From assembly GCA_012441205.1 (NCBI GenBank), contig GCA_012441205.1_4705.1: DNA of 64,000 bases; one strand, given 5' to 3'. The DNA comes from a phage. The notes under the pieces are model-generated. The model did not search any database. It saw only the letters and a program-made list of their open reading frames with translations, and had not been told where the DNA came from. Both the position numbers and the translations under genes were made by a program. Below, piece by piece: positions 4,001 to 50,652 of this stretch; the stretch's first letter is position 1; every line of letters begins with the position of its first letter.

Positions 4001-7000
4001 CGACGGCATTAAGTCTCCCACGGATGTTAAAACGCGGTGCGGTTGAGATCTACAAACAGCTTGACAAAACACCCGACGTTTACGTCAAGGGAGAATCAAC
4101 GCCTCGTCTGTTGTCCATGGTGTTAGCAGCGGGTGGGTATTTCCGTCGCTCGGATGGACAAGTCATCAAAAATCTTGAAGACATCGATGGTGATGTTGTT
4201 GATGCACAAGGTAACGTCGTACTTACGCTTGCCGACATGCAGAAAGGACTTGTCGATAAATACGGTAAAGCGATTCGTCGTTTAAAAGAAAAGCTCATCA
4301 ACTTCGGTGTAAAAGCTTTTACGTTACCGTTAACGTTGCTACGTAAGACAAAGGACATCCTTAAAGCCCTTCCAGGTAAAACCGTTAACGGTCTACGGCG
4401 GATGGGATTAAATTTCCAATCACCCGACGCATTACTGGTGGGAACAACGTCGAGCATGGTAGATCGCCTCGATGCTATTTACCAGCTTCTTGACCAGCGT
4501 ATGCCGGGAGGTGATAAGGATTACCGCGATTGGAATGGCGATGGTGTTCGAGAAGGATCGTTGGAAGACCTGAAACGTAAGCGTGAAGCCAAGGAAAACG
4601 GTAAGGATGACATCGGCAAAGATTCCAATAAAGGAGAAGAAAAGGAGAAGAAACGAGGGTTACTCGGAAGCCTTTTCGATATGCTCGGTGATACCGCAAT
4701 AGGTAAACGTCTCATGGCGAGTCCGCTTGGAAAAATTCTGGGTGGTCTTGGGGCGGTGTTAAGCGGCGGTGCGTCGTTAACTGGGTTGTTGGGCAAAGGT
4801 CTCATTAGAGGAACCGGCGCGCTGGTCAAGGGAGGACTAAGTGCGGCAGGATGGTTAGGACGTGGTGCGTTAATGGCGGGTGGGGCCGCGTTGAACGCCG
4901 TTGGTGGGTTATCGGGATTAGGTGCATTCCTCATCTCACCTGTTGGGCTTGCTATCGCTGGCGGTGCGTTGGCTGCTTATGCTGGATGGAAGATCTATCA
5001 GCATTTCGCCGAGAAGCCTGACCCGATGCAGAAGCTCCGTCTTATTGCATACGGTGCAAAAGGGGATGATAAAGACTTCAATAAGAAGCTGCTTGCGACA
5101 GAAACATACCTCACCGACCATGTGGTCATGACCGGGGATACCATCGGATTCGATCCGAAAGCCGATTCTGAAAAGATTCTCGAAATCTGGGAATTGTCTC
5201 TGGAAGATTCCGACCGAATGAACGAATGGAAACGCTGGTATCTGCATCGTTTTATTCCTGTTTTCGCTCGTGCGTACAAACTCTGGAAAGAGCATATGCC
5301 GGACGAGAAGAAATACATGGAAATGGATAAATATCCGAACGGTGAGAACAAAGTGAAATGGTCGGAAGCGTTTATCTGGCCTTCCGATAGTCCTGATGGT
5401 CCGTATTACGTCGAAGCTAACCCGTTGGGTTCTTCTGGTGCGACGCGTTATATTGCTGGTCAAGACGTCAAAACCTTGATGCTGAAACAGCTCGAAGCCA
5501 TCAAGAAAGAGTACCAGAATCAGATTAAGCAATACACTCATGATGAGGCTATTGCTGATTGGTCACGGATGTCTGACACACAACGTAAATCCGTTGCGCC
5601 TAACGCATTACGTGGTCAGAAAGCGTCATTACGTTTTAACGATAAACGTTACAACAGCGCTGGTGCTAAAGGACGACAGAAACTGGATGCAACCGCGGTT
5701 ATTGAAAGCGTAGACCGTCGTGGTAGAAAATGGGTTGCCGGTGGATACATCGATGAACTCACCAGTCTCCGTGTTCGTGCGTACGGTATTAAGGTTCCGT
5801 TGTTAAGTCAGATAAAAGTGCTGATGGAACTCGAAGACGCTGTAGAACCTGGCGTTGTCGCTGAAGGTAAAGGTGTTAAATACGGTGGCGATCTTGTCGC
5901 GCTCTACAAGAAATTCGCGACGAAGTTCGGAAGAGACGTTAACAGCAAGCATGATCAGGATATCTGGTTTGCTTGGATGAACAACCGTTTCCTGCCCGTC
6001 TTTTTAACCTATTACCAACAAGTTAGCGACATGGGCGGTCAAGGACTTCTGTCCGACGTGGTACAGAACCTGAAAGACAGCCAACGTTGGGAAATCGGTG
6101 AAGAACTTGTCGCAGCGCAATACCGTGATGAGAAAGGTACACTGCAGCCCGTATGGTCGTGGAACAGTTGTGGTTTCTCCGGTACTGAAGCTAACACCAC
6201 CAGCAGTTCAACAAAGAGTCAGCTCGATCTGTTAAAAGAATATGCGGATAAAGAGAAGGTTCGTGAGAAGAACGCGGAAGCATCGCAAGAGGATACCGAT
6301 AAATTATCGAAGATCCAAGAGCTGATGATGAAGCAGGCTGGGTACGAGAAGAAAGACGGTGTCTGGCAGAAGAAATCTCGCATTACCGGCGGGATGAGTA
6401 ACTCCGAAGCGAATTACAACCCCAATGGGAATAAGGTCGGTGCAAGCAGCTTTACTGCTTCAGCTACTTCCAGTGCGGGATTGGGGTCAACCGGCGATCT
6501 TACCGGATTGCCTAACATGGGCTTACAGAAACCTGCAACGGGGCCAGGTCCCGAAGCTGGACGTCGTGCGCTTGTTAAATCCGCTGTGAAACGCGGTATT
6601 ACCGATCCAATGGAAATGGCGATGTTCCTTGCAAACATCGAACATGAATCGGGGAACTACACTCACGTACGTGAGGGGAACTATAAGACACCAGAGCATC
6701 TTAAACAGGTCTTCCCTTACAAATTCCGTGACGTGCAGGATGCAGCGCAGACGATTAGCATGGGGCCGGAAGCGGTGTTCGAACGCGTGTACGGTAATCG
6801 TAAAGACTTAGGGAACACGCAGAAAGGAGACGGGGCGAAGTATTTAGGACGTGGCTTCATTCAGGTTACCGGTAAAGCTAACTACGCTCGTCTGTCCAAG
6901 ACCTTGAATAAAGATCTTGTCAGCGATCCATCATACCTGGAAACGCCGGAAGGTGCGGCGGAAGGTAGTGTCGCGTGGTGGCTCAACCGAGGCAATGTGT

Positions 7001-12152: not shown

Positions 12153-12202
12153 GGCATCACCTATGTATCATTCTTGCAGGCATCAATGAAGCCATCACAA
12201 GA

Positions 12203-12254
12203 AGGTAACGTTATACGTCGCCTTCATGACTGTCATCATGAAGGTAATATAGTC
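12203..12254 (+). promoter_or_regulatory. conserved intergenic element, copy A (candidate phage promoter or regulator site)
   Basis: AGGTAACGTTATACGTCGCCTTCATGACTGTCATCATGAAGGTAATATAGTCC; near-identical to 37921-37976; lies in a divergent intergenic region about 35 bp upstream of ATG 12286. Confidence 0.4.
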
Positions 12255-14312: not shown

Positions 14313-14987
14313 TTAGCCCTCATCAAGGTTATTCTGGAGATGCATCGCGGTGAGGATAACGCCAACCGCCGAAACCGATTTTGCCTTGCTGTCTTCAGGG
14401 AGCTGCTCCAAGCTTACGGTACCTGTTTCTAACAGCATGCGGTTCATCGCGTTGAACTTCTTATCGTCACCACCACGAGCCTGCATCAGCTCTCGGTTCA
14501 CGTTCGGCATCGACCGTCCTAACGTCGCTTGCATTTCCGGCTGGCTCCAAGTGGAACCTTTACTATCACCCGTCGGCTGATTGGTGAGCTGGTCCTTGGT
14601 GTTGTTGTTTTTCGGAATCGAAATTTTAGCACTCAACGTTTCGGCTTGTCGGCGGTTTGGAATCAGGTACAATCTGGTTGGGCGGTCACGAAGCACCAAT
14701 TGCCCTGTTTTCTGGTCGGTGAGATAAATGCGTTGGAAGAAAGGGAAACCGTATTTCTTACCGACTTCCAACGCACGTTTTATCGTCACCTCGTTTTTGT
14801 TCATGTTGGGTACCCAGATGGGTAGAATCTCTTTCTTATCCCGACATAAACGCATATAGGCATCAAACGTCTCATCATCGATTTCAGCAAAACGTTTTTT
14901 GTAAATAGCGTAAGTCGGGCTCGATTCACCCACCAGGTCTTTGATATACCCAAGAATGAATTTTTCTGCTGCAGCGCGGTTGGACAT
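14313..14987 (-). CDS. hypothetical protein (224 aa)
   Basis: ORF tightly packed in minus-strand operon. Confidence 0.6.
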   Translation of the reverse strand: MSNRAAAEKFILGYIKDLVGESSPTYAIYKKRFAEIDDETFDAYMRLCRDKKEILPIWVPNMNKNEVTIKRALEVGKKYGFPFFQRIYLTDQKTGQLVLRDRPTRLYLIPNRRQAETLSAKISIPKNNNTKDQLTNQPTGDSKGSTWSQPEMQATLGRSMPNVNRELMQARGGDDKKFNAMNRMLLETGTVSLEQLPEDSKAKSVSAVGVILTAMHLQNNLDEG

Positions 14988-14996
14988 AAACGTCTC

Positions 14997-15338
14997 CTAT
15001 TGTCGTGTCTGTTGCGGAAATACCCGAAACACCTGGACAATGATGTTCTTGTCCTCGCGGTTGGCGATGTCGATCATGTGTTTTGTTCCAGGACTTTTGA
15101 AATCCCAGAACGCAATTAAATGCGTAATGACATCGCCCATCCACTCATTGCGTCTGAATCCAGCACCTTTACGATAAGGACCATCCCAATCGGCAGGAAA
15201 CGTGGTGTATTTAAACCCGTAATCCTTCGCGTAGCGGCGCACATGCAAATCAGCGCCTGAATGCGCACCGCCAGCAATGAGATGAACTTTGTCGTGAGGA
15301 AGGTTGTGTAACATCTGGTTCATACGCTTTTCGAACAA
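14997..15338 (-). CDS. small protein, possible SLOG/DUF2493-like fold
   Basis: Translation LIAGGAHSGADLHVRRYAKDYG...FPADWDG...GAGFRRNEWMGD...LIAFWD..SPGTKHMI resembles the GG.x.GAD / ADW / RN..M / AFWD..S.GT pattern of that family; recalled from memory, not searched. Confidence 0.4.
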   Translation of the reverse strand: MFEKRMNQMLHNLPHDKVHLIAGGAHSGADLHVRRYAKDYGFKYTTFPADWDGPYRKGAGFRRNEWMGDVITHLIAFWDFKSPGTKHMIDIANREDKNIIVQVFRVFPQQTRQ

Positions 15339-15391
15339 GGGATAATCATCCCAGTAGCGTGATCCCGATACCCCTACACGATAGGGTTCGC

Positions 15392-15712
15392 TTATCTTCC
15401 ACCGCGCAATGACTTTACGTTGCGTGCGATAAAGGGTGCAACGTAATCACGGAAATTATGGATCCATCCTTTAATGGGTTGGTTGTCTAGTAAGCACTCA
15501 CGTACCGAAAACGTACTTACTTCTAATACACCAAACTGTAGTCGCCAATAGCGATTGATTTCAGCTTGGGTATGTTCTAATGTCATGTACTCAGGAACAC
15601 GAGCCAATAGGTCGTGTTTAAATTGCTCAGCAATCGCTGGTTGATGTGACGCAATTGTCTGCGTGATAACATCAATCAGTTCATGTGCATGCTTGATAGC
15701 AGGTGCGGTCAT
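15392..15712 (-). CDS. hypothetical protein (106 aa)
   Basis: ORF in operon context. Confidence 0.5.
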   Translation of the reverse strand: MTAPAIKHAHELIDVITQTIASHQPAIAEQFKHDLLARVPEYMTLEHTQAEINRYWRLQFGVLEVSTFSVRECLLDNQPIKGWIHNFRDYVAPFIARNVKSLRGGR

Positions 15713-15724
15713 TTATTTAGCCTT

Positions 15725-17215
15725 TTATTTTTTACTCGGACGATTCAATGCGGGTACCGGGTTCTTTGGTTGCTTTGTCTTTTCATCCATCCAGTACGGG
15801 AAGTACTCACCAGTACGCATACGCAATAAGTCCATTGTGGACAGGAACGGCAGCGGGTTAGGATCGTCCAGATACGTCCAGTAACCACGCGTGTTTAACA
15901 ATACATCCCAATCGAAACCTTTTGCTTTAAGATCGTCGTACAGTTCCTGTGGGGTGCAATACAGCTGTGGGTTTTCGTAAACCTCTTGACGCCAGAGATT
16001 ATGCATTTGACACAGCTCCGACGTAATTTCCAGAGCACGCTGTAAATACTCATCCTCTTCGCAGAGAGAACGAATGGTCGTACGCTGCAACGCAACATCC
16101 GGATAAATATCCAAATATACCGTTGAAGCACCATCAGCTGACTTACCACCTGACGCATGCATACCCCAACCACGCATCCAATCTTTATCACGCAGGTAGT
16201 GGTATTCCGTTAATGATGGTTTAACCCCTTCGCTCTGACTAACCACAATCGGGAACGGTAAGCCGGTGGGTCCGTTTTTAGCGCGCATGTTAAAGACTTG
16301 AATCAACTGCAGATCGGTATCCCCGATAAGGTTGTCACCAGGCCCACGCGGATAAAGGACGCGTTTATCCGCGTTCTGAAGAATCGTCAGTTTATCGATT
16401 TTCCAGAGGTTATTCGTATAAAACGTGAAGCGTTCCGGGACGTTCTTAAACTTCTCATCGCCCTTAAACCCTTTCAGTTTTCGTACCGGTTGCTGTCCCG
16501 GCATACCACCAACGTTTACACCGTCACCAAGGTGGGCGGTCATGGTAATGTAGATACCCGCCGACGCTGTGAGTACTGGCATCTGTGATAGAATCTGGCT
16601 TTTCGCAGCTGCTGAACGCATCGCTTCAGCATTCAGTTTTGCGCCACCCGCGGTTTCTTTATCGAACAGTGCATCAACGGCATCGATTGGTAATCCAGAG
16701 AAACTGTCGATGAGTACAACGGTCGGCAACCACCAGGTATAGTTCTCACCGTGTTTATTAATAAACGGAACGGCTTTGCGTTGAGATTTATCTTTGACCT
16801 TGTCGTCACGGAATTTCTTAATCGCATCAAACCAAATGTTACCGCTCATCTGAACAGCATCGGTGATAAACACACGTTCTTCTTCGAAAAGATCGACACC
16901 TGCGATATTAGACATGTTCATCGCAAGCGTTAAGATACGTGTTGTCGTTAACGACATTTCTGTGTCGTAAACGCTACTATTGCTGTTTGCGTAACGATCG
17001 ATAACGCGTAACAAGCGAAACATTATGAACGTGGTTTTGTTCATGTTGCCGCGAGCGCCTGCGCCCTCAACAAGCATCATGCCGCCGTTACAAATGCTTT
17101 CACCGTGTTTACCGACATAGTACCGACCACCAGATGTGGGAATATCCATTAAGCAACCAATGTTGAGATTAAAACGCATCTCTTCACCAGGAGAAAGGTA
17201 CTTATTAAGATTCAT
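15725..17215 (-). CDS. RecA-superfamily ATPase, possible UvsX/RecA-like recombinase (496 aa)
   Basis: Candidate Walker A EGAGARGNMNKTTF, Walker B-like TVVLIDSFSGL (cf. UvsX VVFIDSLGNL, RecA IVVDSVAAL), then AEAMRSAAAKSQIL...AGIYITMTAHL (cf. RecA ARMMSQAMRKLAG...LLIFINQ). Confidence 0.5.
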   Translation of the reverse strand: MNLNKYLSPGEEMRFNLNIGCLMDIPTSGGRYYVGKHGESICNGGMMLVEGAGARGNMNKTTFIMFRLLRVIDRYANSNSSVYDTEMSLTTTRILTLAMNMSNIAGVDLFEEERVFITDAVQMSGNIWFDAIKKFRDDKVKDKSQRKAVPFINKHGENYTWWLPTVVLIDSFSGLPIDAVDALFDKETAGGAKLNAEAMRSAAAKSQILSQMPVLTASAGIYITMTAHLGDGVNVGGMPGQQPVRKLKGFKGDEKFKNVPERFTFYTNNLWKIDKLTILQNADKRVLYPRGPGDNLIGDTDLQLIQVFNMRAKNGPTGLPFPIVVSQSEGVKPSLTEYHYLRDKDWMRGWGMHASGGKSADGASTVYLDIYPDVALQRTTIRSLCEEDEYLQRALEITSELCQMHNLWRQEVYENPQLYCTPQELYDDLKAKGFDWDVLLNTRGYWTYLDDPNPLPFLSTMDLLRMRTGEYFPYWMDEKTKQPKNPVPALNRPSKK

Positions 17216-26953: not shown

Positions 26954-26955
26954 AA

Positions 26956-26996
26956 ACCATCCTCCCAACCCGTAAGGGAAGGGAGGATGAAATATG
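26956..26996. repeat. GGAGG-stem palindromic hairpin element (family copy)
   Basis: CCATCCTCCC-aaCCCgtaaGGGaa-GGGAGGATG then AAATATG; between convergent genes. Confidence 0.6.
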
Positions 26997-32928: not shown

Positions 32929-34017
32929 ATGAGCGACCTGGCAACAGACAATCGCACAAAAGGGAGTCAGCTAGCTCCAGACAACAACGTAAGCGTTTTC
33001 CGTATCTATGCCTTGGGTACTGTTGCTGCCGACTTTTCCAATAAAAGTCTGGAGGAAGATCCTAACCAGACGCTGGAGGTCTTTCTTGATGAGATGATGT
33101 CAGGCGCTGATGGGAAAGTTGAAGCGGTGGGAAGCGTTAAAGAAGTCAGTGCAACAGACGCTCAAGGGAACAGCTATACGGCGAAAGCGGCAACAACAAC
33201 CAGCATACAGTGTTACTGGTTACCCTTCGGCAGTAACCGGATGACAGCACCTAACTTGAGGAAAGGTCAGCGTGTGGTGGTTTGGCGTACCGCGGATGAA
33301 GAACAACTCTATTGGCAACCCAAAGGAGGGGATAGCGAGCTGATGACCATGGAATCGGTTATCCTCACCGTCAGCGCACGTCCTAGCGCCAAGAAGGACC
33401 GTAAATCGATTTCAACGGAAGACTGCTATTACCTAATGGTTGATACCTTCCTCAAGAAAGCGGTTATCGGCACCAGCGCACAGCTTGGTGAAGTTACCCA
33501 AGTCTACATGGAACTTAATCTGGACGAGGGTTACCTACAGGTTGCGGACAGCGTTCATCAAAATCTGTTGTTACTCCATTTTGTCGAGCATATGCTGCGT
33601 TATCAAAACCAGGACGACAGCATCATCGACGTGACAAAAAAGAACATCACGTTCCAGTGCGAGGATACGCTCAAAGCAATCGCTAAGAACGATATCCGAA
33701 TGAAAGCAAAAAATATTTATACGGAATGTGAGAACTTTGAACGTACCAGCAAAACAGAAAGCGTTACGAGTCAGAATGTTTCTTTGAAGTGTGATCGTTA
33801 CACCGCGCAAGTATCAGGACAGACCACGTTTAAATGTCCTAATACGGTATTCACTGGAGCTGTAAGCTTCACAGGTGAAGACGGAAACACGATGACGTTG
33901 AATGGGAACTTCGTACACATCGCAGGCTCTTGGCGTTCACCAACCGGAACAAACGTATACACCCACGATCACGGTGGTGTAGATCGTGGTAGCGGTCGTA
34001 CAGACCCGTTCCAATAA
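32929..34017 (+). CDS. hypothetical protein (362 aa), possibly structural
   Basis: ATG with AGGAG upstream; Gly-rich C-terminus DHGGVDRGSGRTDPFQ; structural role is a guess. Confidence 0.45.
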   Translation: MSDLATDNRTKGSQLAPDNNVSVFRIYALGTVAADFSNKSLEEDPNQTLEVFLDEMMSGADGKVEAVGSVKEVSATDAQGNSYTAKAATTTSIQCYWLPFGSNRMTAPNLRKGQRVVVWRTADEEQLYWQPKGGDSELMTMESVILTVSARPSAKKDRKSISTEDCYYLMVDTFLKKAVIGTSAQLGEVTQVYMELNLDEGYLQVADSVHQNLLLLHFVEHMLRYQNQDDSIIDVTKKNITFQCEDTLKAIAKNDIRMKAKNIYTECENFERTSKTESVTSQNVSLKCDRYTAQVSGQTTFKCPNTVFTGAVSFTGEDGNTMTLNGNFVHIAGSWRSPTGTNVYTHDHGGVDRGSGRTDPFQ

Positions 34018-34048
34018 ACAGAAGAAAAAAAAAAGAAATGCAATACAA

Positions 34049-34088
34049 CCTCCTTCCCTAGCCGTCAAGGCCGGGGAAGGAGGATTAT
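34049..34088. repeat. GGAGG-stem palindromic hairpin element (family copy); A10 tract just upstream at 34025-34034
   Basis: CCTCCTTCC-ctaGCCgtcaaGGCcgg-GGAAGGAGG then ATTATAG; between convergent genes. Confidence 0.55.
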
Positions 34089-34098
34089 AGTTTATTTA

Positions 34099-34488
34099 TT
34101 AACGCGTTGCATTCTGGATGATTTCTTTTCCGATCTTAACCAAAGCGGGTATCTGTACAGCGGTTGCGCCTCGATGACGAAACGCGGTCGTTAACGCGGT
34201 ATCGATACTCACCGCACGTCCGTGAAGACGATCGAAATAGACTTGAGTGATTGCGGTAGCGTAATCCTTTCGCTGTTTCTTGGTTTGGCTCAACAGCGCC
34301 GCACTATGACTAACGATGAAGTAAGCGATTAAGAAGAACGCCGCTGACCGAGAACCAGGTAGAAAACCTTGTCGCTTAGGGAGCATCTCACAATCGCGAA
34401 CACTATTATCGTTCGCCAGCTCTTCCATATCAACACAGCATAATTTTGCATAGGTGTGGAGATAGTGGGTAAAAGTTGAATTTAACAT
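34099..34488 (-). CDS. hypothetical protein (129 aa)
   Basis: ORF in a block of small minus-strand genes. Confidence 0.5.
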   Translation of the reverse strand: MLNSTFTHYLHTYAKLCCVDMEELANDNSVRDCEMLPKRQGFLPGSRSAAFFLIAYFIVSHSAALLSQTKKQRKDYATAITQVYFDRLHGRAVSIDTALTTAFRHRGATAVQIPALVKIGKEIIQNATR

Positions 34489-34593
34489 TTTCTTTCCTCG
34501 ATTGCCATGAGTTCAATGTATAGCTTAAACGTCACAGAACGACGTATAACGGTTTGTTTTAATTTCTAAGGGGTTTCCTTATCTAAGATTGAT

Positions 34594-34956
34594 TTAAAGC
34601 GTTCTGAAGAGTTCTGTAGCGTTCTCGTCACGTAGGCAGGCTTCGTTCAACAATTCAGCTAACAGCTTCGACCGAACTTCAACAAATGTCCTGAGGCGAT
34701 GCTCCCATTCTAAACGGATAGTGTACGTATTATCCAGGTTTTTGTAATCAACGACAGATGTAGAACAACGGGCCTCGCGTTTGTTCACAGCACTCCAAAC
34801 ATCACGGATAACCGTCACGCCTTTCTTGGTACACGTAAACGTTAAAATAAAGCGATTATTCGCAGCTTCTTCACGGACGCCAACAAATTCACTTCGCAAC
34901 GATGAGACTTTGATCAGTCGGTCAATAGCTAACGATAAACCGATACGTTGTTGCAT
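34594..34956 (-). CDS. hypothetical protein (120 aa)
   Basis: ORF. Confidence 0.5.
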   Translation of the reverse strand: MQQRIGLSLAIDRLIKVSSLRSEFVGVREEAANNRFILTFTCTKKGVTVIRDVWSAVNKREARCSTSVVDYKNLDNTYTIRLEWEHRLRTFVEVRSKLLAELLNEACLRDENATELFRTL

Positions 34957-34957
34957 A

Positions 34958-35383
34958 TCAAATTCCTTCTTTCAGAATCTCATTAAGACCGTCAGTAATC
35001 CAGTCGAACTTCGTCTTAATCATGGCTGGGTTCAATCCATATACTTCCCACACAAGCTGGGGTTTATGTGTTCCATCGTCCAAACAAAGCACATCGATTG
35101 AGAGTACCATACCACCCGTCAATTTCATGTTCTCGCAACTACGAAGATATGCGGATTCTAGCAATACTTTCCCTAACGCAGTGCAAGCAAATGTTAACCG
35201 GGAAGAGTACAGGTACGATGACGTTTTACAGTAGGTTGCTGATATCGGTTGAATATGTTTGCGGAGTTTGGCGTCTTCACGTAAAAGCAATAACGTGTGA
35301 TGTAACCGCGTATGCTCGGTAACCGATGAGCTATACTCACCGATACACTCTTCGGCGACTGATTTAGGCCATTTAATTTTCAT
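34958..35383 (-). CDS. hypothetical protein (141 aa)
   Basis: ORF, adjacent to the upstream gene with a 1-nt gap. Confidence 0.5.
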   Translation of the reverse strand: MKIKWPKSVAEECIGEYSSSVTEHTRLHHTLLLLREDAKLRKHIQPISATYCKTSSYLYSSRLTFACTALGKVLLESAYLRSCENMKLTGGMVLSIDVLCLDDGTHKPQLVWEVYGLNPAMIKTKFDWITDGLNEILKEGI

Positions 35384-35398
35384 GTTCGATTCCTCGTA

Positions 35399-35842
35399 TT
35401 AACACTGTGTTCCATTCGATAAGCGGGTGGTATCAAAACGATCCAGTTGGTGTACAATGCTATCAGCAACACGATGCAAATAGTGTATTTTGTCCATTCG
35501 TGAAATCGCAGAAATCGTCCAGCAAGCCTCTGACGTCCAATAGGTGCCGTCTTCACTAAGGCTAACGTTATAAACTAACTTCGTCATCACATTTCTCGCC
35601 TTATGCTCAGCAGACCAGAATATGTTTTCTAACACATCCTTCCCCGTTTGTGAAAACACGAACCCAAGCTTCACGTCGAAGTCGGATGCTTCAAGATTAA
35701 CGCAGTGAAGATGATTCTCTAACGGCGCAAAAGAGGCTAAACGTTCCAGCGCATGTTGCAGTGTGGGATGATCGAGCTTTTCGAGATCATCCGCAGGTTG
35801 TTCAGGTACAATCGCGATCGATTTACAGAATTTAATTTCCAT
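35399..35842 (-). CDS. hypothetical protein (147 aa)
   Basis: ORF. Confidence 0.5.
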   Translation of the reverse strand: MEIKFCKSIAIVPEQPADDLEKLDHPTLQHALERLASFAPLENHLHCVNLEASDFDVKLGFVFSQTGKDVLENIFWSAEHKARNVMTKLVYNVSLSEDGTYWTSEACWTISAISRMDKIHYLHRVADSIVHQLDRFDTTRLSNGTQC

Positions 35843-35877
35843 GGTAGGTTCCTCTTGATAGTGGTTGATGATAGTAA

Positions 35878-35940
35878 CGGGGACGGCGATGTCCCCTTGG
35901 TTTCTTATTGCCCCGCCTGTACCCGATGGGGTACAGGCGG
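35878..35940 (-). other. two tandem stem-loops between co-directional genes
   Basis: GGGGAC-ggcgat-GTCCCC and CCCGCCTGTACCC-gatg-GGGTACAGGCGGG. Confidence 0.4.
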
Positions 35941-35954
35941 GTGATGTTGATGCG

Positions 35955-36362
35955 TTATAGCGGCATCAGACGTTCTTTAAGTTGGGTTAACTTATTTGCA
36001 ACGATGTTCTCAACGTCGATCATCTTGTTCATGTTGTCGAGGGTATCCTGCCAGATGAAAATATCCACGGAACCGGTTCCGACTAACGCGTTCTCAGGAC
36101 GATGGTCACGGGTCACGTAGCGTGGTCTCTGCGGGCAGGTTTGTAACTCGATCCAAAGCGCATCTAACGGACCACGGTCCGTGACACCTAAGGCGAAGAA
36201 TTCACCTCGTACGACCAGAACATCATCAGCCGTCCTGACACGGGTTGATCCTTCGTACACCAATTCCATCTTTGCTCGACAGGCTGGGTTCTCGTTCCAC
36301 GCCTGGACGGCATCGGCAAGGGCTATTGACGTTGCGGTGGTGTTCGTTTGATCATGTTGCAT
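35955..36362 (-). CDS. hypothetical protein (135 aa)
   Basis: ORF. Confidence 0.5.
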   Translation of the reverse strand: MQHDQTNTTATSIALADAVQAWNENPACRAKMELVYEGSTRVRTADDVLVVRGEFFALGVTDRGPLDALWIELQTCPQRPRYVTRDHRPENALVGTGSVDIFIWQDTLDNMNKMIDVENIVANKLTQLKERLMPL

Positions 36363-36439
36363 TCTAAGCTCCTGTAACGCTCTCTAAGCGTCGTTTTAAG
36401 TTAAGGTATAGTTTCCCTTCTTTGGATTCGTTTATTGCG

Positions 36440-36715
36440 TTATACGGCTTTTCTGTGCGCGTAGAACGCCTTCGTTCCGTTGTTGATTGCTTCAACCACA
36501 TCCCGGGTTAACACAACGGCGTTATCGCTTCGAGACGACGGTGCGTAATACCCTTCACCGTTCTCGGTAATCAGGCGATAACGGACTAAGCCTATGCTCG
36601 GTTCAACACGTAGCACCTTCTCAAGTTTGTATTTGATGATCTTCGTCAGGCTAACCGTGTCTGACGCGTAGATCGCTTTATAAACTTTGTTCTTTGCTGT
36701 GGGTTTCATCAACAT
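36440..36715 (-). CDS. hypothetical protein (91 aa)
   Basis: ORF. Confidence 0.45.
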   Translation of the reverse strand: MLMKPTAKNKVYKAIYASDTVSLTKIIKYKLEKVLRVEPSIGLVRYRLITENGEGYYAPSSRSDNAVVLTRDVVEAINNGTKAFYAHRKAV

Positions 36716-36755
36716 GATTTCTGTTGTATTTTCCTTTTCGCTTGTTGGTGTTGGA

Positions 36756-37055
36756 TTAATGTTTAGGTTCCGTTTTGTGTTGTGCGAGTAATGTGTTGAT
36801 CTGCTCCCGTTGTTCTTTTAAGCATGCAGGAAGCTGGTCTTCCCGTACCGTTCCGATTTCCAACGTGATGTACCAACGTTGTTCGGAAGCCTGCCATTGA
36901 AAACTGCTCTGTAACCTCAGGATGCTAGGATCACGTACCTTGCTTGCACTGTAACGGTTGAACCAATCCAGGTATGCTGCTTTCCCTTCCTCGTCAGCGA
37001 TGTAACGCTGCACGCTGTTCTTCCCTTTGTTCTCGTATCCCGTTGCACGTATCAT
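36756..37055 (-). CDS. hypothetical protein (99 aa)
   Basis: Preferred start ATG 37055 overlaps upstream stop as ATGA; ORF track extends to 37109. Confidence 0.45.
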   Translation of the reverse strand: MIRATGYENKGKNSVQRYIADEEGKAAYLDWFNRYSASKVRDPSILRLQSSFQWQASEQRWYITLEIGTVREDQLPACLKEQREQINTLLAQHKTEPKH

Positions 37056-37834
37056 GCGAACGTTTCTCCTGTAATGTGTTGCGGATGGCGTAGCATGGTA
37101 GCATCCCATTGTACGATCTGGCTTCGGCTTACCCGCATCATGATGGATTCGTCATCAAGCCCCTGTTGCGCAACCGGCAACCAACGTTCCCCAAGCACCT
37201 TCGCTTCAACACGTTTCTTGCGTGGGTTGTAACGCACCTCGCTAACCCAAGCGAATCCAAGCGGATGGACTACCCGTGGATAAAACATGCGAAGCAATTG
37301 ATGCATCCGATCCGTTGCCTCCAATTTGCCATCCACCATGTAAGGTTTCACCATGGTAAGCTTTTTGGTGTAATACGTTCCAACGGTATGGTTACGCCAA
37401 CTTGGCAAGGCATGATCCCCTTCTCTCAGTTTGCTATCCGAGTTCATTGACCAGACCTGCTGTTTACCGGCCAGCATCGCGTACTGCCGATCAACGCAAC
37501 GAACCCGATCGGCGAACAATGGATCCAGGACATCATCCACCGCGCCCTTATTGCGATAACCGTGATGTACCACCAACCTGCTTGCGCTCATCGATGCGGG
37601 ATGCTGGCTCTTATGCGCATACAGCCCTCCGTCACCGCGAGCGTCGTAAAGATAACCGCATGCGCCACGCCATATCACCTTGCCTACGGTTCTCTCGTCT
37701 TCAAGCAGCATCGTCGGCCCATCAAGCAAATTGGTGAACCACTGCACCTTCACGCATTCCGCTTGGACATGCTCAGGTAATGCCTGATACTCTTTTTGGG
37801 TGTATAAGGTATCAAAAATGATTTCTTCGTTCAT
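37052..37834 (-). CDS. hypothetical protein (260 aa)
   Basis: ORF; first gene downstream of the long non-coding region on the minus strand. Confidence 0.6.
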   Translation of the reverse strand: MNEEIIFDTLYTQKEYQALPEHVQAECVKVQWFTNLLDGPTMLLEDERTVGKVIWRGACGYLYDARGDGGLYAHKSQHPASMSASRLVVHHGYRNKGAVDDVLDPLFADRVRCVDRQYAMLAGKQQVWSMNSDSKLREGDHALPSWRNHTVGTYYTKKLTMVKPYMVDGKLEATDRMHQLLRMFYPRVVHPLGFAWVSEVRYNPRKKRVEAKVLGERWLPVAQQGLDDESIMMRVSRSQIVQWDATMLRHPQHITGETFA

Positions 37835-37920
37835 TTAAAAAGTTCCTCTGTTTCACGTTAATTAAACAACGTATTGATTTCTATTTGACAGAATACGAAC
37901 ATCGTACGTATCTATCACTT

Positions 37921-37976
37921 AGGTAACGCTTACGCGTCGCGTTCATGATACCATGCATCATGAAGGTAATATAGCC
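37921..37976 (+). promoter_or_regulatory. conserved intergenic element, copy B
   Basis: AGGTAACGCTTACGCGTCGCGTTCATGATACCATGCATCATGAAGGTAATATAGCC; near-identical to 12203-12254. Confidence 0.4.
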
Positions 37977-38085
37977 GTGAAAGGATTTGTGTTAACGCAA
38001 GGGTTTTGTTTGTTTTTTAAGAAGGGATGGATTTAGAAGAGGTGTTTCAAGGAAGGTAAACGAGAATAGGTATTTTGATTTAAGT

Positions 38086-38210
38086 AAGATGTTATCTGTA
38101 TCCGTTAGAAGTGTATTGTCTAAGTTATCTTGTTTATCTTAGGTTTAATCGTTTTTATCTTGGTATGTTTAAGTTGTTTTTATTTAACTGTTAAAATGCT
38201 TATCTTCAAA
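38086..38210. repeat. AT-rich tract with reiterated TTATCT/TTATC motifs (iteron-like)
   Basis: gTTATCTgta, gTTATCTtg, tTTATCTtag, tTTATCTtgg, cTTATCTtc within about 120 bp. Confidence 0.5.
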
Positions 38211-38220
38211 ACAATGGATA

Positions 38221-38269
38221 ACATGTGTTTACTACGCTCGTTGAGTTATAACTCAACGGTAACACATGT
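38221..38269. repeat. nested palindrome (cruciform-capable)
   Basis: Outer arms ACATGTGTT / AACACATGT enclosing inner arms CGTTGAGTT / AACTCAACG. Confidence 0.6.
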
Positions 38270-38428
38270 CATCTGTGCATTACACTACGTTACATGCTAG
38301 TTAAATCGGATAACTCAAAAAAACATTTGTGATACTCTTCTTCACGTTGTTCATCAGAGTATCTCGTCTATACTCATTGCATTCGTATACGACATAACCG
38401 TTACACGCTAACGCTACGCTTATAGCTT

Positions 38429-38495
38429 GATAACTCTAAGGATAAAAACATAAACTCGCTTCGCTCGTTTAGTTTTTCTTTTTCTTAGAGTTATC
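38429..38495. repeat. 12-bp perfect inverted repeat GATAACTCTAAG / CTTAGAGTTATC separated by 43 bp
   Basis: Read directly at 38429-38440 and 38484-38495; GATAACTC also recurs at 38308. Confidence 0.6.
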
Positions 38496-38661
38496 CTGTT
38501 GCTCGTCTCTAAAGGACTTCGCTCCTCCCCCGTCCCCCGAAGGGGCCGAGGTCGTGGAAATTTTACTTTCCAAATACATTTACAACATCTGTAAACTTTT
38601 ACTCCAGGTACTTAATCTTATCATTAGAAATTATAAAAGAGAAAATAAACACAAACATAAA

Positions 38662-38698
38662 CCTTCCCCCGACCCGTAAGGGAAGGAGGAAGGGAGAG
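38662..38698. repeat. hairpin related to the junction family (conserved apex CCCGTAAGGGAA)
   Basis: CCTTCC-cccgaCCCgtaag-GGAAGG then GAGGAAGGGAGAG; directly 3' of minus gene stop 38705. Confidence 0.45.
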
Positions 38699-38704
38699 AT
38701 TAAA

Positions 38705-39597
38705 TTATTCGGAAACGTTATAACCGAATACTGCTTTACCGTAGGTGTGAGTACCGTCAGCTAACGACAGCACCAACACATGGTTGTATGTAGCGTTAAC
38801 GCCTTTATCGGTAGACCCGGTGGTAGCACCGTTATAGACAAAGGTAGCTGTTTGCAGATTGGTTTTCAGTTCATTGATGATATCATCACTTACACCAGTC
38901 TGTTCTTTAATCAGGGTGGTCAGGTTACCCGCTAAGCCTGCATCGATCTTGGTATCGTTACTGGTAATAGCTTGTAAACCTGCGGTGTAAGTACTGAAGT
39001 CTAACGGATAGGTTAACAGACGTGCTGAGGTCTTGGTACCATCGCCTTCATCAACGTAGGTTAAGTTACCCAGATTGGTAACCTTGATGATGTTAGCCAG
39101 ATCCAGCGTGGTGTTATAAACTTTAACTTGAACAGAGCCATACCACGCCAACGAATCTTCTTTGGCTTCCAGGGTGATCGTCTGGATACCATGCTGGTCG
39201 AAGGTAACCGGCGTAGCTAACGTTTCGGCTTTGATGTCTTTCGCTTTATCCAGGAACTTCTCACCGGAAGGCGTGATCATACCGTAGCGTTGAGCTACAA
39301 GGTCAACCACATCACCGATGGTGGTGTTCGCCTCAACGTTAACACGTACAGCGATCTTCTGGAACCACTTAGCCAGATCCAGACGATGGTAGGTGACATC
39401 TCGGTTATTGAAGTAAGGGGTACCTTCACCAGGACTAAGTGTTAAAGTTGCTTCTGGAGCAGAAGGATTCTTTTCTTTAAGGACGTATTTAAGGTCGGTA
39501 TATTTAAAGCTGGCACCAGTGTCAGCGTTAAGCTGGTTGATCTCATCAACGATAAGTTGCCAAGGTGTTTTTAAAGTAAGCGATACTTGAGCAGTCA
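38705..39597 (-). CDS. paralogous-family protein (297 aa), putative virion structural protein
   Basis: Preferred start ATG 39597 (MTAQVSLTLK); shares Y.R.DL, DLVAQRYGM and LAWYGSV motifs with the family at 50658-54277. Confidence 0.6.
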
Positions 39598-39737
39598 TTT
39601 TCTTCCTCGATAGTTGGTACATCACTCTCAAAAGATGTAAGTGTTTACAGAAATTAATATATTTTATATTAAATGTGAATATTATGGAGAACGACTCCGA
39701 ATCTCCTTTTCGACCATCAAAATCAGAGGACACGAAC

Positions 39738-40283
39738 ATGTCTACTTTAGACTTTAACAAAGCAGCGAAATCCCTTCTGCTTGATCTTATTAACACCAAA
39801 GCGACCCGCACATTGGCTGAAGAAGAACTGCAGTTCGGTACTCCGCAGGAATCTTCCGAACATGAAAAGAACACCGTTATTCAGCTGGACGCGGCGGCTG
39901 AAGCAGCTAACCTGCAGGGTACTCAGCAGTTCTACTACGATCGTCTGGCTCTGTCTGACGTTTTCGCTGATGTAACTGGTGATGTTACTTTCGAACTGCC
40001 GCACGGTACTGACAGCATTCAGGCTTCTGAGCTGGTAAGCAAGCTGGTCACCAAATTCGGTCTGGCTTCCCTGAATGGTGAAATCAGAGAAGAAACCTTC
40101 CAGCTGTCTGCCGGTACTGTTGATGAGGTAATTCTGAATGCGATCGAGGGTGGCCTGGTATACACTGGTACTCTGCGAGTTGCCCTGACCTACGCACTGG
40201 CACCAAAAGACGAACTGGCAACCGTTCTGGCGAATAACGTAGCTGAAGGTTTCGAGAAACCGACCGTTAGCGTTGTTGGCTAA
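39738..40283 (+). CDS. paralogous-family protein (181 aa), strongly codon-optimised, probably highly expressed
   Basis: ATG 39738 with GAGGA upstream; near-exclusive use of CTG, GGT, CGT, CCG, GAA, GCT, ACT, TCT codons; architecture parallels the neighbouring 297-aa protein. Confidence 0.7.
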   Translation: MSTLDFNKAAKSLLLDLINTKATRTLAEEELQFGTPQESSEHEKNTVIQLDAAAEAANLQGTQQFYYDRLALSDVFADVTGDVTFELPHGTDSIQASELVSKLVTKFGLASLNGEIREETFQLSAGTVDEVILNAIEGGLVYTGTLRVALTYALAPKDELATVLANNVAEGFEKPTVSVVG

Positions 40284-40478
40284 TAAGCACATAGAGCAAT
40301 AGTATGGGTTTTGTACAGCTCGGCTATTGATCTTCTACAATTTGGTTGTAACAATCTGCGTGGTTGCACGCTTATCTTTCTCATTGAACGCTTCGTATGA
40401 AGCGTGGTGTTGAAAGGGTTGTGGATCTCCTCAAGCGGCCAGGGACCCAGACCAACCTGAATAAACACAAACACATGT

Positions 40479-40512
40479 TAAGCCCCTCCTCATCCGTTAT
40501 TGGGTGGGGGGG
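40479..40512. repeat. degenerate hairpin related to the junction family
   Basis: CCCCTCC-tcatccgttattgggt-GGGGGGG, between convergent genes ending at 40283 and 40577. Confidence 0.3.
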
Positions 40513-40576
40513 GTCTTATACGTCTTTATGCGTTCCGTTCGTTCTGGAGCGTTTTAGGACGGTTTATGATGGTGTT

Positions 40577-41212
40577 TTACTCAACACTGAACCCGTTCAA
40601 GATGATCGCTTCATAACGCTTACGTTCACGACGTTTGCGTGCCTGCCAACCGTAGATGAATTTCTCATCTTTCTCACGACGTTCCGCTAATTCGATGTAA
40701 TAGGTGCTCTGCATGTCCAGCATCGCATCGATGAGATAATCCTTACCGGTTGCACCACGCTTAGCGATGTAAGCGTCGAGCGCGCTTAACGTCGCAGGTC
40801 CCATCAAACCGTCGGCGTTGATATTCTTCCAGTACGTTTGTCGGTTGTTCATGACGTTCAGATAACGTTGGAGGTTCTTAACCGGGACGGTTTTGCCAGC
40901 ATTGATACCCAGGTCAAAGAGACGGTCAGCTAAGAACACAGAACGTTTCATGACTTCGTCAAGTTTCATCTTATCCCAGAAGTGGGTCTTGTAGATAAAG
41001 AACGCCATTTCCGTGGTAAGGTTACGCATGTTACCGTCCCAGCCGAATTTCGTTTTCAGCGTGGTTTTGTATTGATCGGCGAGTGTTTTCGTAATGCCGT
41101 GGTTCGTGATTCCACCCGAGTCATCGGGATCGTCGACGTAACCTGCTTCGATGCTGGTTTTATCGCGAATGATAAATTCGCACGTGAAATCTTTCTCAGT
41201 AATCTTAGCCAT
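40577..41212 (-). CDS. endolysin, GH108-type lysozyme domain plus peptidoglycan-binding domain
   Basis: AGYVDDPDDSGGITNHGIT matches the GH108 EGGY..DP.D.GG.T..GIT motif; GLMGPATLSAL matches a PG-binding motif; GAGGAG upstream of ATG 41212; no signal peptide or SAR-like N-terminus. Confidence 0.75.
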   Translation of the reverse strand: MAKITEKDFTCEFIIRDKTSIEAGYVDDPDDSGGITNHGITKTLADQYKTTLKTKFGWDGNMRNLTTEMAFFIYKTHFWDKMKLDEVMKRSVFLADRLFDLGINAGKTVPVKNLQRYLNVMNNRQTYWKNINADGLMGPATLSALDAYIAKRGATGKDYLIDAMLDMQSTYYIELAERREKDEKFIYGWQARKRRERKRYEAIILNGFSVE

Positions 41213-50609: not shown

Positions 50610-50652
50610 AACATAACCCTCCTCCAACCCGTAAGGGAAGGAGGAGGGAATA
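50610..50652. repeat. GGAGG-stem palindromic hairpin element (canonical family copy)
   Basis: CATAA-CCCTCCTCC-aaCCCgtaaGGGaa-GGAGGAGGG-AATATG; between convergent genes ending at 50606 and 50658. Confidence 0.65.

Follow-up and report, generated by a model that had tools for sequence, protein, structure and literature searches.

An ultraconserved structured block in the largest non-coding gap of Goslar-like jumbo phages, possibly a new non-coding RNA

In nucleus-forming jumbo phages, replication and transcription take place within a shell of protein and with polymerases of the phage, and in the literature searched neither an origin of replication nor a functional non-coding RNA has been defined for them. 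Described systems to which the element treated here can be compared are phage non-coding RNAs such as the pRNA of phi29 and the ROOL and GOLLD RNAs. This element, called the core in the following, is a single-copy structured block of about 280 nucleotides (nt; about 38312-38603, minus strand), and it is part of a gap at positions 37835-38704 of a 64,000-nt stretch of phage DNA (NCBI GenBank assembly GCA_012441205.1, contig GCA_012441205.1_4705.1), which as a whole is referred to as the window. The window belongs to a relative of Escherichia phage Goslar (Chimalliviridae), with DNA about 96% identical as judged by megablast and annotation, and Goslar-like phages are nucleus-forming jumbo phages of E. 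coli, the genome of Goslar having 237 kb. Like the mentioned phage RNAs, the core is a multi-hairpin candidate of a few hundred nt that is phage-specific and strongly conserved, and it is without any detectable complementarity that would mark an antisense regulator, but it differs from them in that it is a candidate without a match in Rfam and that it is found only in Goslar-like phages. With a probability of about 45%, the core may be a new structured non-coding RNA that is made from the minus strand.

No other stretch of the window that is free of open reading frames (ORFs) of at least 60 amino acids (aa) in all six frames is as long as the gap, and with its 870 nt, compared to 243 nt in the next internal case, it is the largest non-coding stretch of the window, just as an earlier note on this DNA had claimed. 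The homologous gap of Goslar (14972-15825, 854 nt) is the largest unannotated interval in that genome. Besides the window, the locus was gathered from 16 further Goslar-like genomes, namely three IMG/VR contigs, one of which is Goslar itself, eight metagenome contigs, and five contigs that were found via gp022 homologs, and the gap is retained in all 16 of them, with lengths of about 660-1060 nt. Two short contigs (L030 and L031), in which gp022 is about 50% identical, were set aside, as they have too little flank to judge. Both flanking genes are on the minus strand, and if the gap is read in this direction, it consists of a late terminator, the ultraconserved structured core, a hypervariable AT-rich spacer, and an early promoter, an anatomy that is well supported. 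The two halves of the gap evolve in opposite ways, the left half (38086-38317) being labile and the right half (about 38312-38603) nearly invariant.

The core is under extreme purifying selection. Over 16 genomes, the 279-nt core has a mean identity of 97.7% with a minimum of 93.1%, and over the same comparison the gene of gp022 is 83.2% identical, with 70.3% at third codon positions. In a constraint scan that was based on an 11-kb alignment of eight genomes, there were 5 variable columns per 250 in the core, versus 19 in the next best scan window and a median of 178, and the core contains the top three of all invariant runs, with lengths of 126, 91, and 53 nt. Nucleotide diversity in this alignment was 0.000-0.014 in the core, 0.09-0.18 in gp022, and 0.2-0.4 in the early genes. 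There are two alleles of the core that differ at about 15-20 positions, and as recombinants of them occur, such as in genome L027, the conservation is not the trace of one recent sweep. The earlier note had focused on the repeats and on the palindrome of the gap, but the strong constraint is found in the right-hand block instead, and the conservation in related phages, which the note had proposed as a check, has two sides: the gap is present in the 16 genomes and its core is nearly invariant, but the half with the repeats and the palindrome is labile.

In the Goslar genome, the core is present in a single copy, and no paralogous copies were detected by nhmmer in Goslar or in the window. With Rfam covariance models, the region 36000-41000 gave no match at an E-value of up to 1 and the window as a whole none that reached the gathering score, and neither a tRNA nor a tmRNA was found. 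No homologs of the core were detected by sensitive blastn (E-value up to 1), and likewise by megablast, in 5,426 E. coli genomes and 72,556 plasmids, and when 50,697 phage records were searched by sensitive blastn, Goslar was the only match. Exact 23-28-mers of the core were found only in the same three IMG/VR contigs, with nothing in GTDB genomes. A scan of genome contigs with the gp022 peptide gave no match, and in the phages SPN3US and CR5 the best gp022 matches are part of a tandem paralog array without a gap, with no counterpart of the locus. The core has been seen only in Goslar-like phages.

The folding stability of the core was compared with 100 shuffles per test, which resulted in z-scores of -4.78 for the plus strand and -4.65 for the minus strand, with 0 of 100 shuffles being as stable, and the free energy is -90.6 kcal/mol for the minus strand versus -72.7 kcal/mol for the plus strand. 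In its consensus fold, the minus strand forms six or seven hairpins in a row, with 87 pairs and 99.6% of the cells paired. In the direction of the minus strand, this predicted chain of stem-loops (SL) comprises SL1 (38596-38578), SL2 (38572-38555), the G+C-rich SL3 with a C(UUCG)G tetraloop (38551-38528), SL3b (38527-38512), and the 67-nt SL4 (38495-38429), the base of which is formed by the 12-bp inverted repeat GATAACTCTAAG / CTTAGAGTTATC that had already been recognized in the earlier note. A local hairpin (38393-38366) with a variable loop (38374-38384) and SL6 (38363-38331) follow, and then an ACAAAUG with a U-run (38330-38317), just after which the conservation ends.

The few changes that occur within the stems are informative with respect to the strand. 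The C(UUCG)G tetraloop of SL3 is found on the minus strand in 16 of 17 genomes, and at two adjacent pairs of that stem the states CG/UG, UG/CG, and UA/CG occur, while in SL1 a U-A pair has become U.G in L027 and L028. On the plus strand, and likewise in a duplex palindrome, the SL3 and SL1 changes would amount to C.A mismatches, and the variation therefore favours a single-stranded form of minus polarity, which, with about four independent events, is suggestive and not decisive. By covariation analysis, a single compensatory pair was obtained in SL3 and a further, weak one at a long-range junction, besides several wobble changes, and 5 of 500 shuffles reached the score. The arms of the hairpins are 5-43 nt apart, and such a distance suits folded single strands better than dimer-bound operators. 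It is because of the UUCG tetraloop, the wobble and compensatory changes that keep the pairs, and the U-run at the edge of conservation that a structured RNA is favoured here. A non-coding RNA had also been proposed in the earlier note, and this idea is supported by the hairpin block at 38312-38603, probably in its minus-strand form, but the reason that had been given, a promoter-like element reading into ORF-free DNA, was wrong, as this element is the putative early promoter of gp021.

The gap could then function as follows. An intrinsic terminator would end the mRNA of gp022, which is a highly expressed late virion gene, and the block of about 280-300 nt that follows would encode a structured minus-strand RNA, either as its gene or as a 3' extension that is processed, and the RNA would end at the conserved U-run. 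This candidate RNA would act via its fold and the invariant loops, and a protein of the phage or of the host would be its most likely binding partner. The AT-rich spacer, whose exact sequence and repeat number are unconstrained, may separate the late unit from the early promoter, or it may be the upstream region of that promoter. The promoter itself, which is of the virion RNA polymerase type and has an optional leader hairpin, would drive the gp021-gp014 operon, as suggested by its motif, the 10 copies thereof, and their orientation.

Several points weigh against such an RNA. The folding z-score fails to separate the strands, and as 75 of the 87 predicted pairs are invariant, the support by covariation is thin. 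A long-range stem, SL5, was rejected as strand evidence, since it forms in one allele only and the variable patch is better explained as the loop of a local hairpin that can form on either strand. The U-run is 7 nt away from a weak AU-rich hairpin with a long loop, and it did not score as an intrinsic terminator. No promoter motif has been found for the core, and the late-promoter-like TATG that follows the terminator of gp022 was rejected as the start of the RNA, because it is part of a shared terminator-tail module and is lost in 3 of 17 genomes (L025, L027, and L028). An RNA is rarely invariant to such an extent, loops included, and a recognition element in the DNA would agree with this near-total invariance as well. 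Finally, the most distant relative that was recovered, L023 (Logan SRR33371455, a 101-kb contig with a gp022 that is 50% identical), lacks the core and the AT tract at this position, where a gap of 374 nt (4883-5256) contains the terminator and the early promoter only. In L023, gp022 lies beside a Tmk-RuvC-SbcC block, and because this position lacks the entire block gp013-gp021 as well, a different place in that genome could harbour the module. A transcriptome of Goslar was not found in the literature searched.

An alternative explanation that has to be considered as rather unlikely is an origin of replication, possibly a transcript-primed one. The AT-rich tract of the left half would then be an unwinding element or an array of initiator sites, and the hairpin block would be a loading signal for helicase or primase or a structured primer transcript that makes an R-loop within the tract. 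The tract (38086-38210, plus strand) contains, as the earlier note had described, five TTATCT(T) repeats in the same orientation (TTATCT at 38092, 38125, 38134, 38155, and 38200), which are the densest such cluster in the 64 kb, and when the tract was shuffled, five TTATC were obtained in 1 of 20000 cases, so that the clustering is significant. At all scales tested (150, 300, 500, and 1000 nt), no segment of the 237-kb Goslar genome is richer in AT than the tract, which has 23% G+C over 150 nt compared to about 46-47% overall, but non-coding DNA is expected to be AT-rich anyway. It also speaks for an origin that the conserved block beside the tract is unique in the genome, that genes for RNase H, a DnaB-like helicase, and DNA polymerases are present in the phage, and that no origin has been reported for any member of the Chimalliviridae in the literature searched. 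The wobble-compatible changes of the stems point to a strand-specific single strand, which can be single-stranded DNA as well as RNA.

Essential iteron arrays are normally fixed. The repeats of the tract, however, are short, with a core of 6-8 nt, their start-to-start spacing is irregular (33, 9, 21, and 45 nt), and their copy number varies from 0 to 6 among close relatives, in a tract that is full of indels, many of which are not multiples of three. With iteron origins such as the lambda ori or plasmid oriV regions, the locus shares the clustered direct repeats of one orientation beside the most AT-rich DNA of the genome, but iterons are regular and conserved repeats of 17-22 bp, and here the core of the repeats is only 6-8 nt long, the spacing irregular, and the tract not conserved. 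An AT-rich region that could serve for unwinding is present, and an adjoining initiator gene was not found: there is no initiator-like or DNA-binding family among the neighbours, with gp021 and the six nearest genes upstream matching neither Pfam nor PHROG families and gp022 and gp023 being DUF7941 virion proteins, although an initiator that cannot be recognised might be among them. Transcript-primed origins, such as those of ColE1 (RNA II), T4 (oriF and oriG), and T7 (primary origin), are similar to this arrangement in that a conserved, transcribed-looking structured block is followed by an AT-rich tract on one strand and that the phage encodes RNase H, but this is a functional analogy only, as there is no sequence similarity and no promoter motif was found for the core. 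It also argues against an origin that in L023 there is just the terminator and the promoter at this position. Sites resembling DnaA boxes were rejected: three TTATCC sites agree with the consensus TTATCCACA in only 6-7 of 9 positions and are without the CACA, as judged by eye.

The GC skew, which the earlier note had proposed for examining the origin, changes at the locus, as the slope of the cumulative skew switches at about 16 kb in Goslar from declining to flat, but there is no V-shaped minimum, and the change of slope coincides with the boundary between early and structural genes, which makes the skew an ambiguous test for an origin. Over the whole Goslar genome, the cumulative curve runs flat between about 16 and about 96 kb and falls steadily in the remainder, though nearly all genes are on one strand. 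Of the origin that had been suggested in the earlier note, the AT-rich tract, the unique element, and the change in skew slope have remained, whereas the short and labile repeats, the missing initiator, and the missing V-minimum speak against it.

Also the nested palindrome that had been noted in the left half is real, with arms at 38217-38229 and 38261-38273 and a perfect 20-bp palindrome inside (38239-38258), so that it covers 38217-38273 without being assigned to either strand. It is optional, however: four genomes (L004, L006, L009, and L013) lack it, and the inner perfect palindrome results from an insertion that is only present in the window, as the inner 16 nt are missing in all other genomes. 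Other small hairpins of the left half come and go among the relatives. Nowhere in the gap is conservation lower than in the repeat tract and the nested palindrome, and the repeats and palindromes that had been flagged in the earlier note are therefore real but represent the evolutionarily labile part of the region. Right after the U-run of the core, a perfect hairpin AACGTTTTGTGAAGACAAAACGTT is inserted in L007, L011, L012, L013, and L024, and in the remaining genomes there is a sequence containing GATAACTC at its place. It appears that small insertions of palindromic sequence are spread through the variable half of the gap.

As another explanation, which is unlikely, the core might be a purely cis-acting transcription element, that is, an insulator or terminator between gp022 and the co-directional early operon, and in variants thereof it might stabilise the 3' end of a read-through gp022 mRNA or, as an upstream region, activate the early promoter. 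Such a role is compatible with the location of the core, which has a late terminator on one side and, on the same strand, an early promoter on the other, a run of hairpins that ends in a U-run could stop read-through, and gp22 and gp23 rank among the most abundant virion proteins (bioRxiv 10.64898/2026.04.21.720040), with the gp023 paralog also having a conserved structured 3' non-coding region (40284-40520). However, terminators, insulators, or stabilisers need structure and not an identity of 97.7% over 280 nt including the loops, other late-to-early junctions as well as L023 manage with one hairpin, and the part that adjoins the promoter is the least conserved of the gap.

It is very improbable that the block is a DNA recognition site, be it a packaging site (pac), a recombination site, or the site of a specific protein that reads GATAAC(TC). 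The block is ultraconserved and present in a single copy, GATAAC occurs 6 times in 400 nt at the locus, the motif GATAACTC is enriched there with 3 of the 9 copies of the 237-kb Goslar genome, and alleles of the core occur as recombinants, for example in L027, all of which would agree with such a site. What speaks against it is the large distance to the terminase gene (Goslar gp222, at about 190 kb), and also that the near-complete contigs of many samples start at unrelated positions relative to the locus and give no sign of fixed ends here. The palindrome arms are too distant for typical dimer sites, and where the stems have substitutions, these are of the kind that makes no difference to a single folded strand.

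That the gap codes for one or more small proteins can hardly be maintained: in a mechanical listing, there are ORFs of 56 aa (TTG start; 38130-38300), 41 aa (GTG), 36 aa (ATG; minus strand, 38469-38579), and 31 aa, which corrects the earlier note that had all ORFs of the gap at 34 aa or less, and the 36-aa ORF is open in 17 of 17 genomes, but none of them looks coding, and they were rejected as genes because of the indels in the tract that contains the 56-aa ORF, which are not multiples of three, because of a frameshift of the 41-aa ORF in L009, because the 36-aa ORF has no ribosome-binding site, an AUG within the SL1 stem, and few substitutions that are mostly non-synonymous and follow the hairpin pairing, and because the diversity at would-be synonymous sites is zero, unlike in every neighbouring gene. 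Flanking inverted repeats of 19 nt (37999-38017 and 38647-38665) were rejected as the ends of a mobile element, as their complexity and conservation are low and, with 52 such pairs reported, they do not exceed what is expected by chance.

At the right end of the gap, the hairpin at 38662-38693 (minus strand) is the predicted intrinsic terminator of the gp022 mRNA. It has a G+C-rich stem of nine pairs followed by TTTATGTTTG, and its start is 12-19 nt after the stop codon, the exact distance varying with the length that is assumed for the stem. As the earlier note had stated, the gap ends here in a hairpin of a repeated family: near-identical hairpins of the type CCTCC..CCCTTACGGG..GGAGG are found at 26955-26990, 38662-38693, and 50612-50647, in each case just downstream of minus-strand genes. 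In all three cases the hairpin is followed by (T)TTATG, and TATG is the core of phiKZ late promoters, so that a coupling of terminator and promoter in this family is conceivable. Between terminator and core there is a semi-conserved AU-rich linker (38604-38661, minus strand), which includes the U-rich tail TTTATGTTTGTGTTTATT of the terminator, and a similar U-rich tail follows the endolysin terminator (40460-40473).

At the left end, early promoters of jumbo phages provide the comparison, which have a conserved AT-rich motif of about 10 nt near -10 and are positioned upstream of early operons (PMC7598289). The element at 37965-37995 (minus strand), which can be written as TTAACA-N16-...TTCACGGCTATATTACC, fits this description and reads leftwards into gp021. 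The motif TTCACGGCTATATTACC itself lies at 37981-37965 (minus strand), and together with related ones at 12243 and 25367 there are three extended copies in the window. All 10 copies in Goslar are on the minus strand, and for eight of them a gene of that strand begins no more than about 100 nt further downstream, one of these genes being that of chimallin, which forms the shell of the phage nucleus. Judged by the motif and by its orientation, the element would drive gp021 and read out of the gap, transcribing only the last 130 nt or so of the gap and not its ORF-free interior, and it hence does not point into the gap, as had been assumed for this conserved intergenic element in the earlier note. 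With early promoters of the phiKZ type it has in common the AT-rich motif of about 10 nt (CTATATTAC), the position upstream of presumed early operons including that of chimallin, and the invariable co-orientation with the gene, and a difference is that this similarity covers 37965-37995 only, with the Goslar motif being defined from sequence alone. The “control hub” that had been suggested for the gap can be accepted in the simple sense that the gap harbours the putative terminator of a late gene and the putative early promoter of the next operon.

Just downstream of the promoter there is an optional leader module (37914-37964, minus strand), which consists of a 43-nt insertion (37914-37956) and a hairpin TTCATGAT/ATCATGAA (37942-37964). 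It is present in the window, in L004, and in L010, where it occurs in two tandem copies, and it is not present in Goslar and L003, while a related copy follows the promoter at 12243 (near 12200-12243). T4-type phages have mobile cassettes of a promoter plus a stem-loop (PeSL). The module is similar to these cassettes in that an early promoter is followed by a stem-loop, that it recurs at 12243, and that it is present, absent, or duplicated among close relatives, but there is no sequence relationship. Directly upstream of the promoter, the tract 37996-38085, to which no strand is assigned, is moderately conserved with a diversity of about 0.1, and its plus strand is purine-rich with GGAAGG motifs. 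The ribosome-binding site of gp021, as read from the sequence, is AGAGGAAC (37842-37849, minus strand), which is kept in most of 12 aligned genomes.

The gene to the left of the gap (37052-37834, minus strand) codes for a homolog of Goslar gp021 with 260 aa and is the first gene of the early operon downstream of the gap, and no Pfam or PHROG family was matched by its product. To the right, the gp022 homolog (38705-39598, minus strand) is a DUF7941 virion protein, of which there are about 580 copies per virion in Goslar (bioRxiv 10.64898/2026.04.21.720040). The other abundant paralog, gp023, is likewise a DUF7941 virion protein. A second conserved non-coding island (40284-40520) is located between the 3' end of gp023, which is on the plus strand and codes for the most abundant DUF7941 virion protein, and the endolysin terminator. 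With a diversity of 0.013-0.018, invariant runs of 51 and 49 nt, and a plus-strand folding z of -3.2, this island may be a long conserved 3' untranslated region or another RNA.

In the wider surroundings, positions 22810-64000 of the window are collinear with Goslar 1-41130 at about 96% identity, interrupted by mosaic patches. The gp014-gp021 block of early genes (33750-37750) has a nucleotide diversity of 0.2-0.4 among Goslar-like genomes, and in the structural genes to the right of the locus it is far lower, with 0.03-0.2. A stretch inside gp021 (37401-37746) has no blastn match to Goslar, which points to a mosaic replacement. The second-largest unannotated gap of Goslar (82470-83288, corresponding to 40470-41288 of L014; 819 nt) is located downstream of a NUMOD1/HNH endonuclease gene, which itself follows a DNA polymerase fragment, and because of these neighbours it is probably an unannotated intron or exon arrangement.

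With respect to the biology of these phages, one unique element of 280 nt is singled out in a genome of 237 kb, beside the most easily melted DNA of that genome, and it evolves about ten times slower than adjacent synonymous-type sites. If the block was only a terminator or insulator, the finding would be ordinary. There is a low probability that core and AT tract together are a transcript-primed replication origin of Goslar-like phages, or that the block is the RNA part of a machinery that is specific for the phage nucleus and serves in replication, mRNA export, or genome handling, and if one of this was true, it would be the first such cis-acting or RNA element defined for the Chimalliviridae. 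The element bears on the questions of how replication starts in these phages and of whether RNAs other than mRNA and tRNA are used by them. Goslar-like phages are the group that is most often found to persist in bacterial isolates (bioRxiv 10.1101/2024.12.31.630880), and an element for replication or maintenance would matter to this persistence as well.

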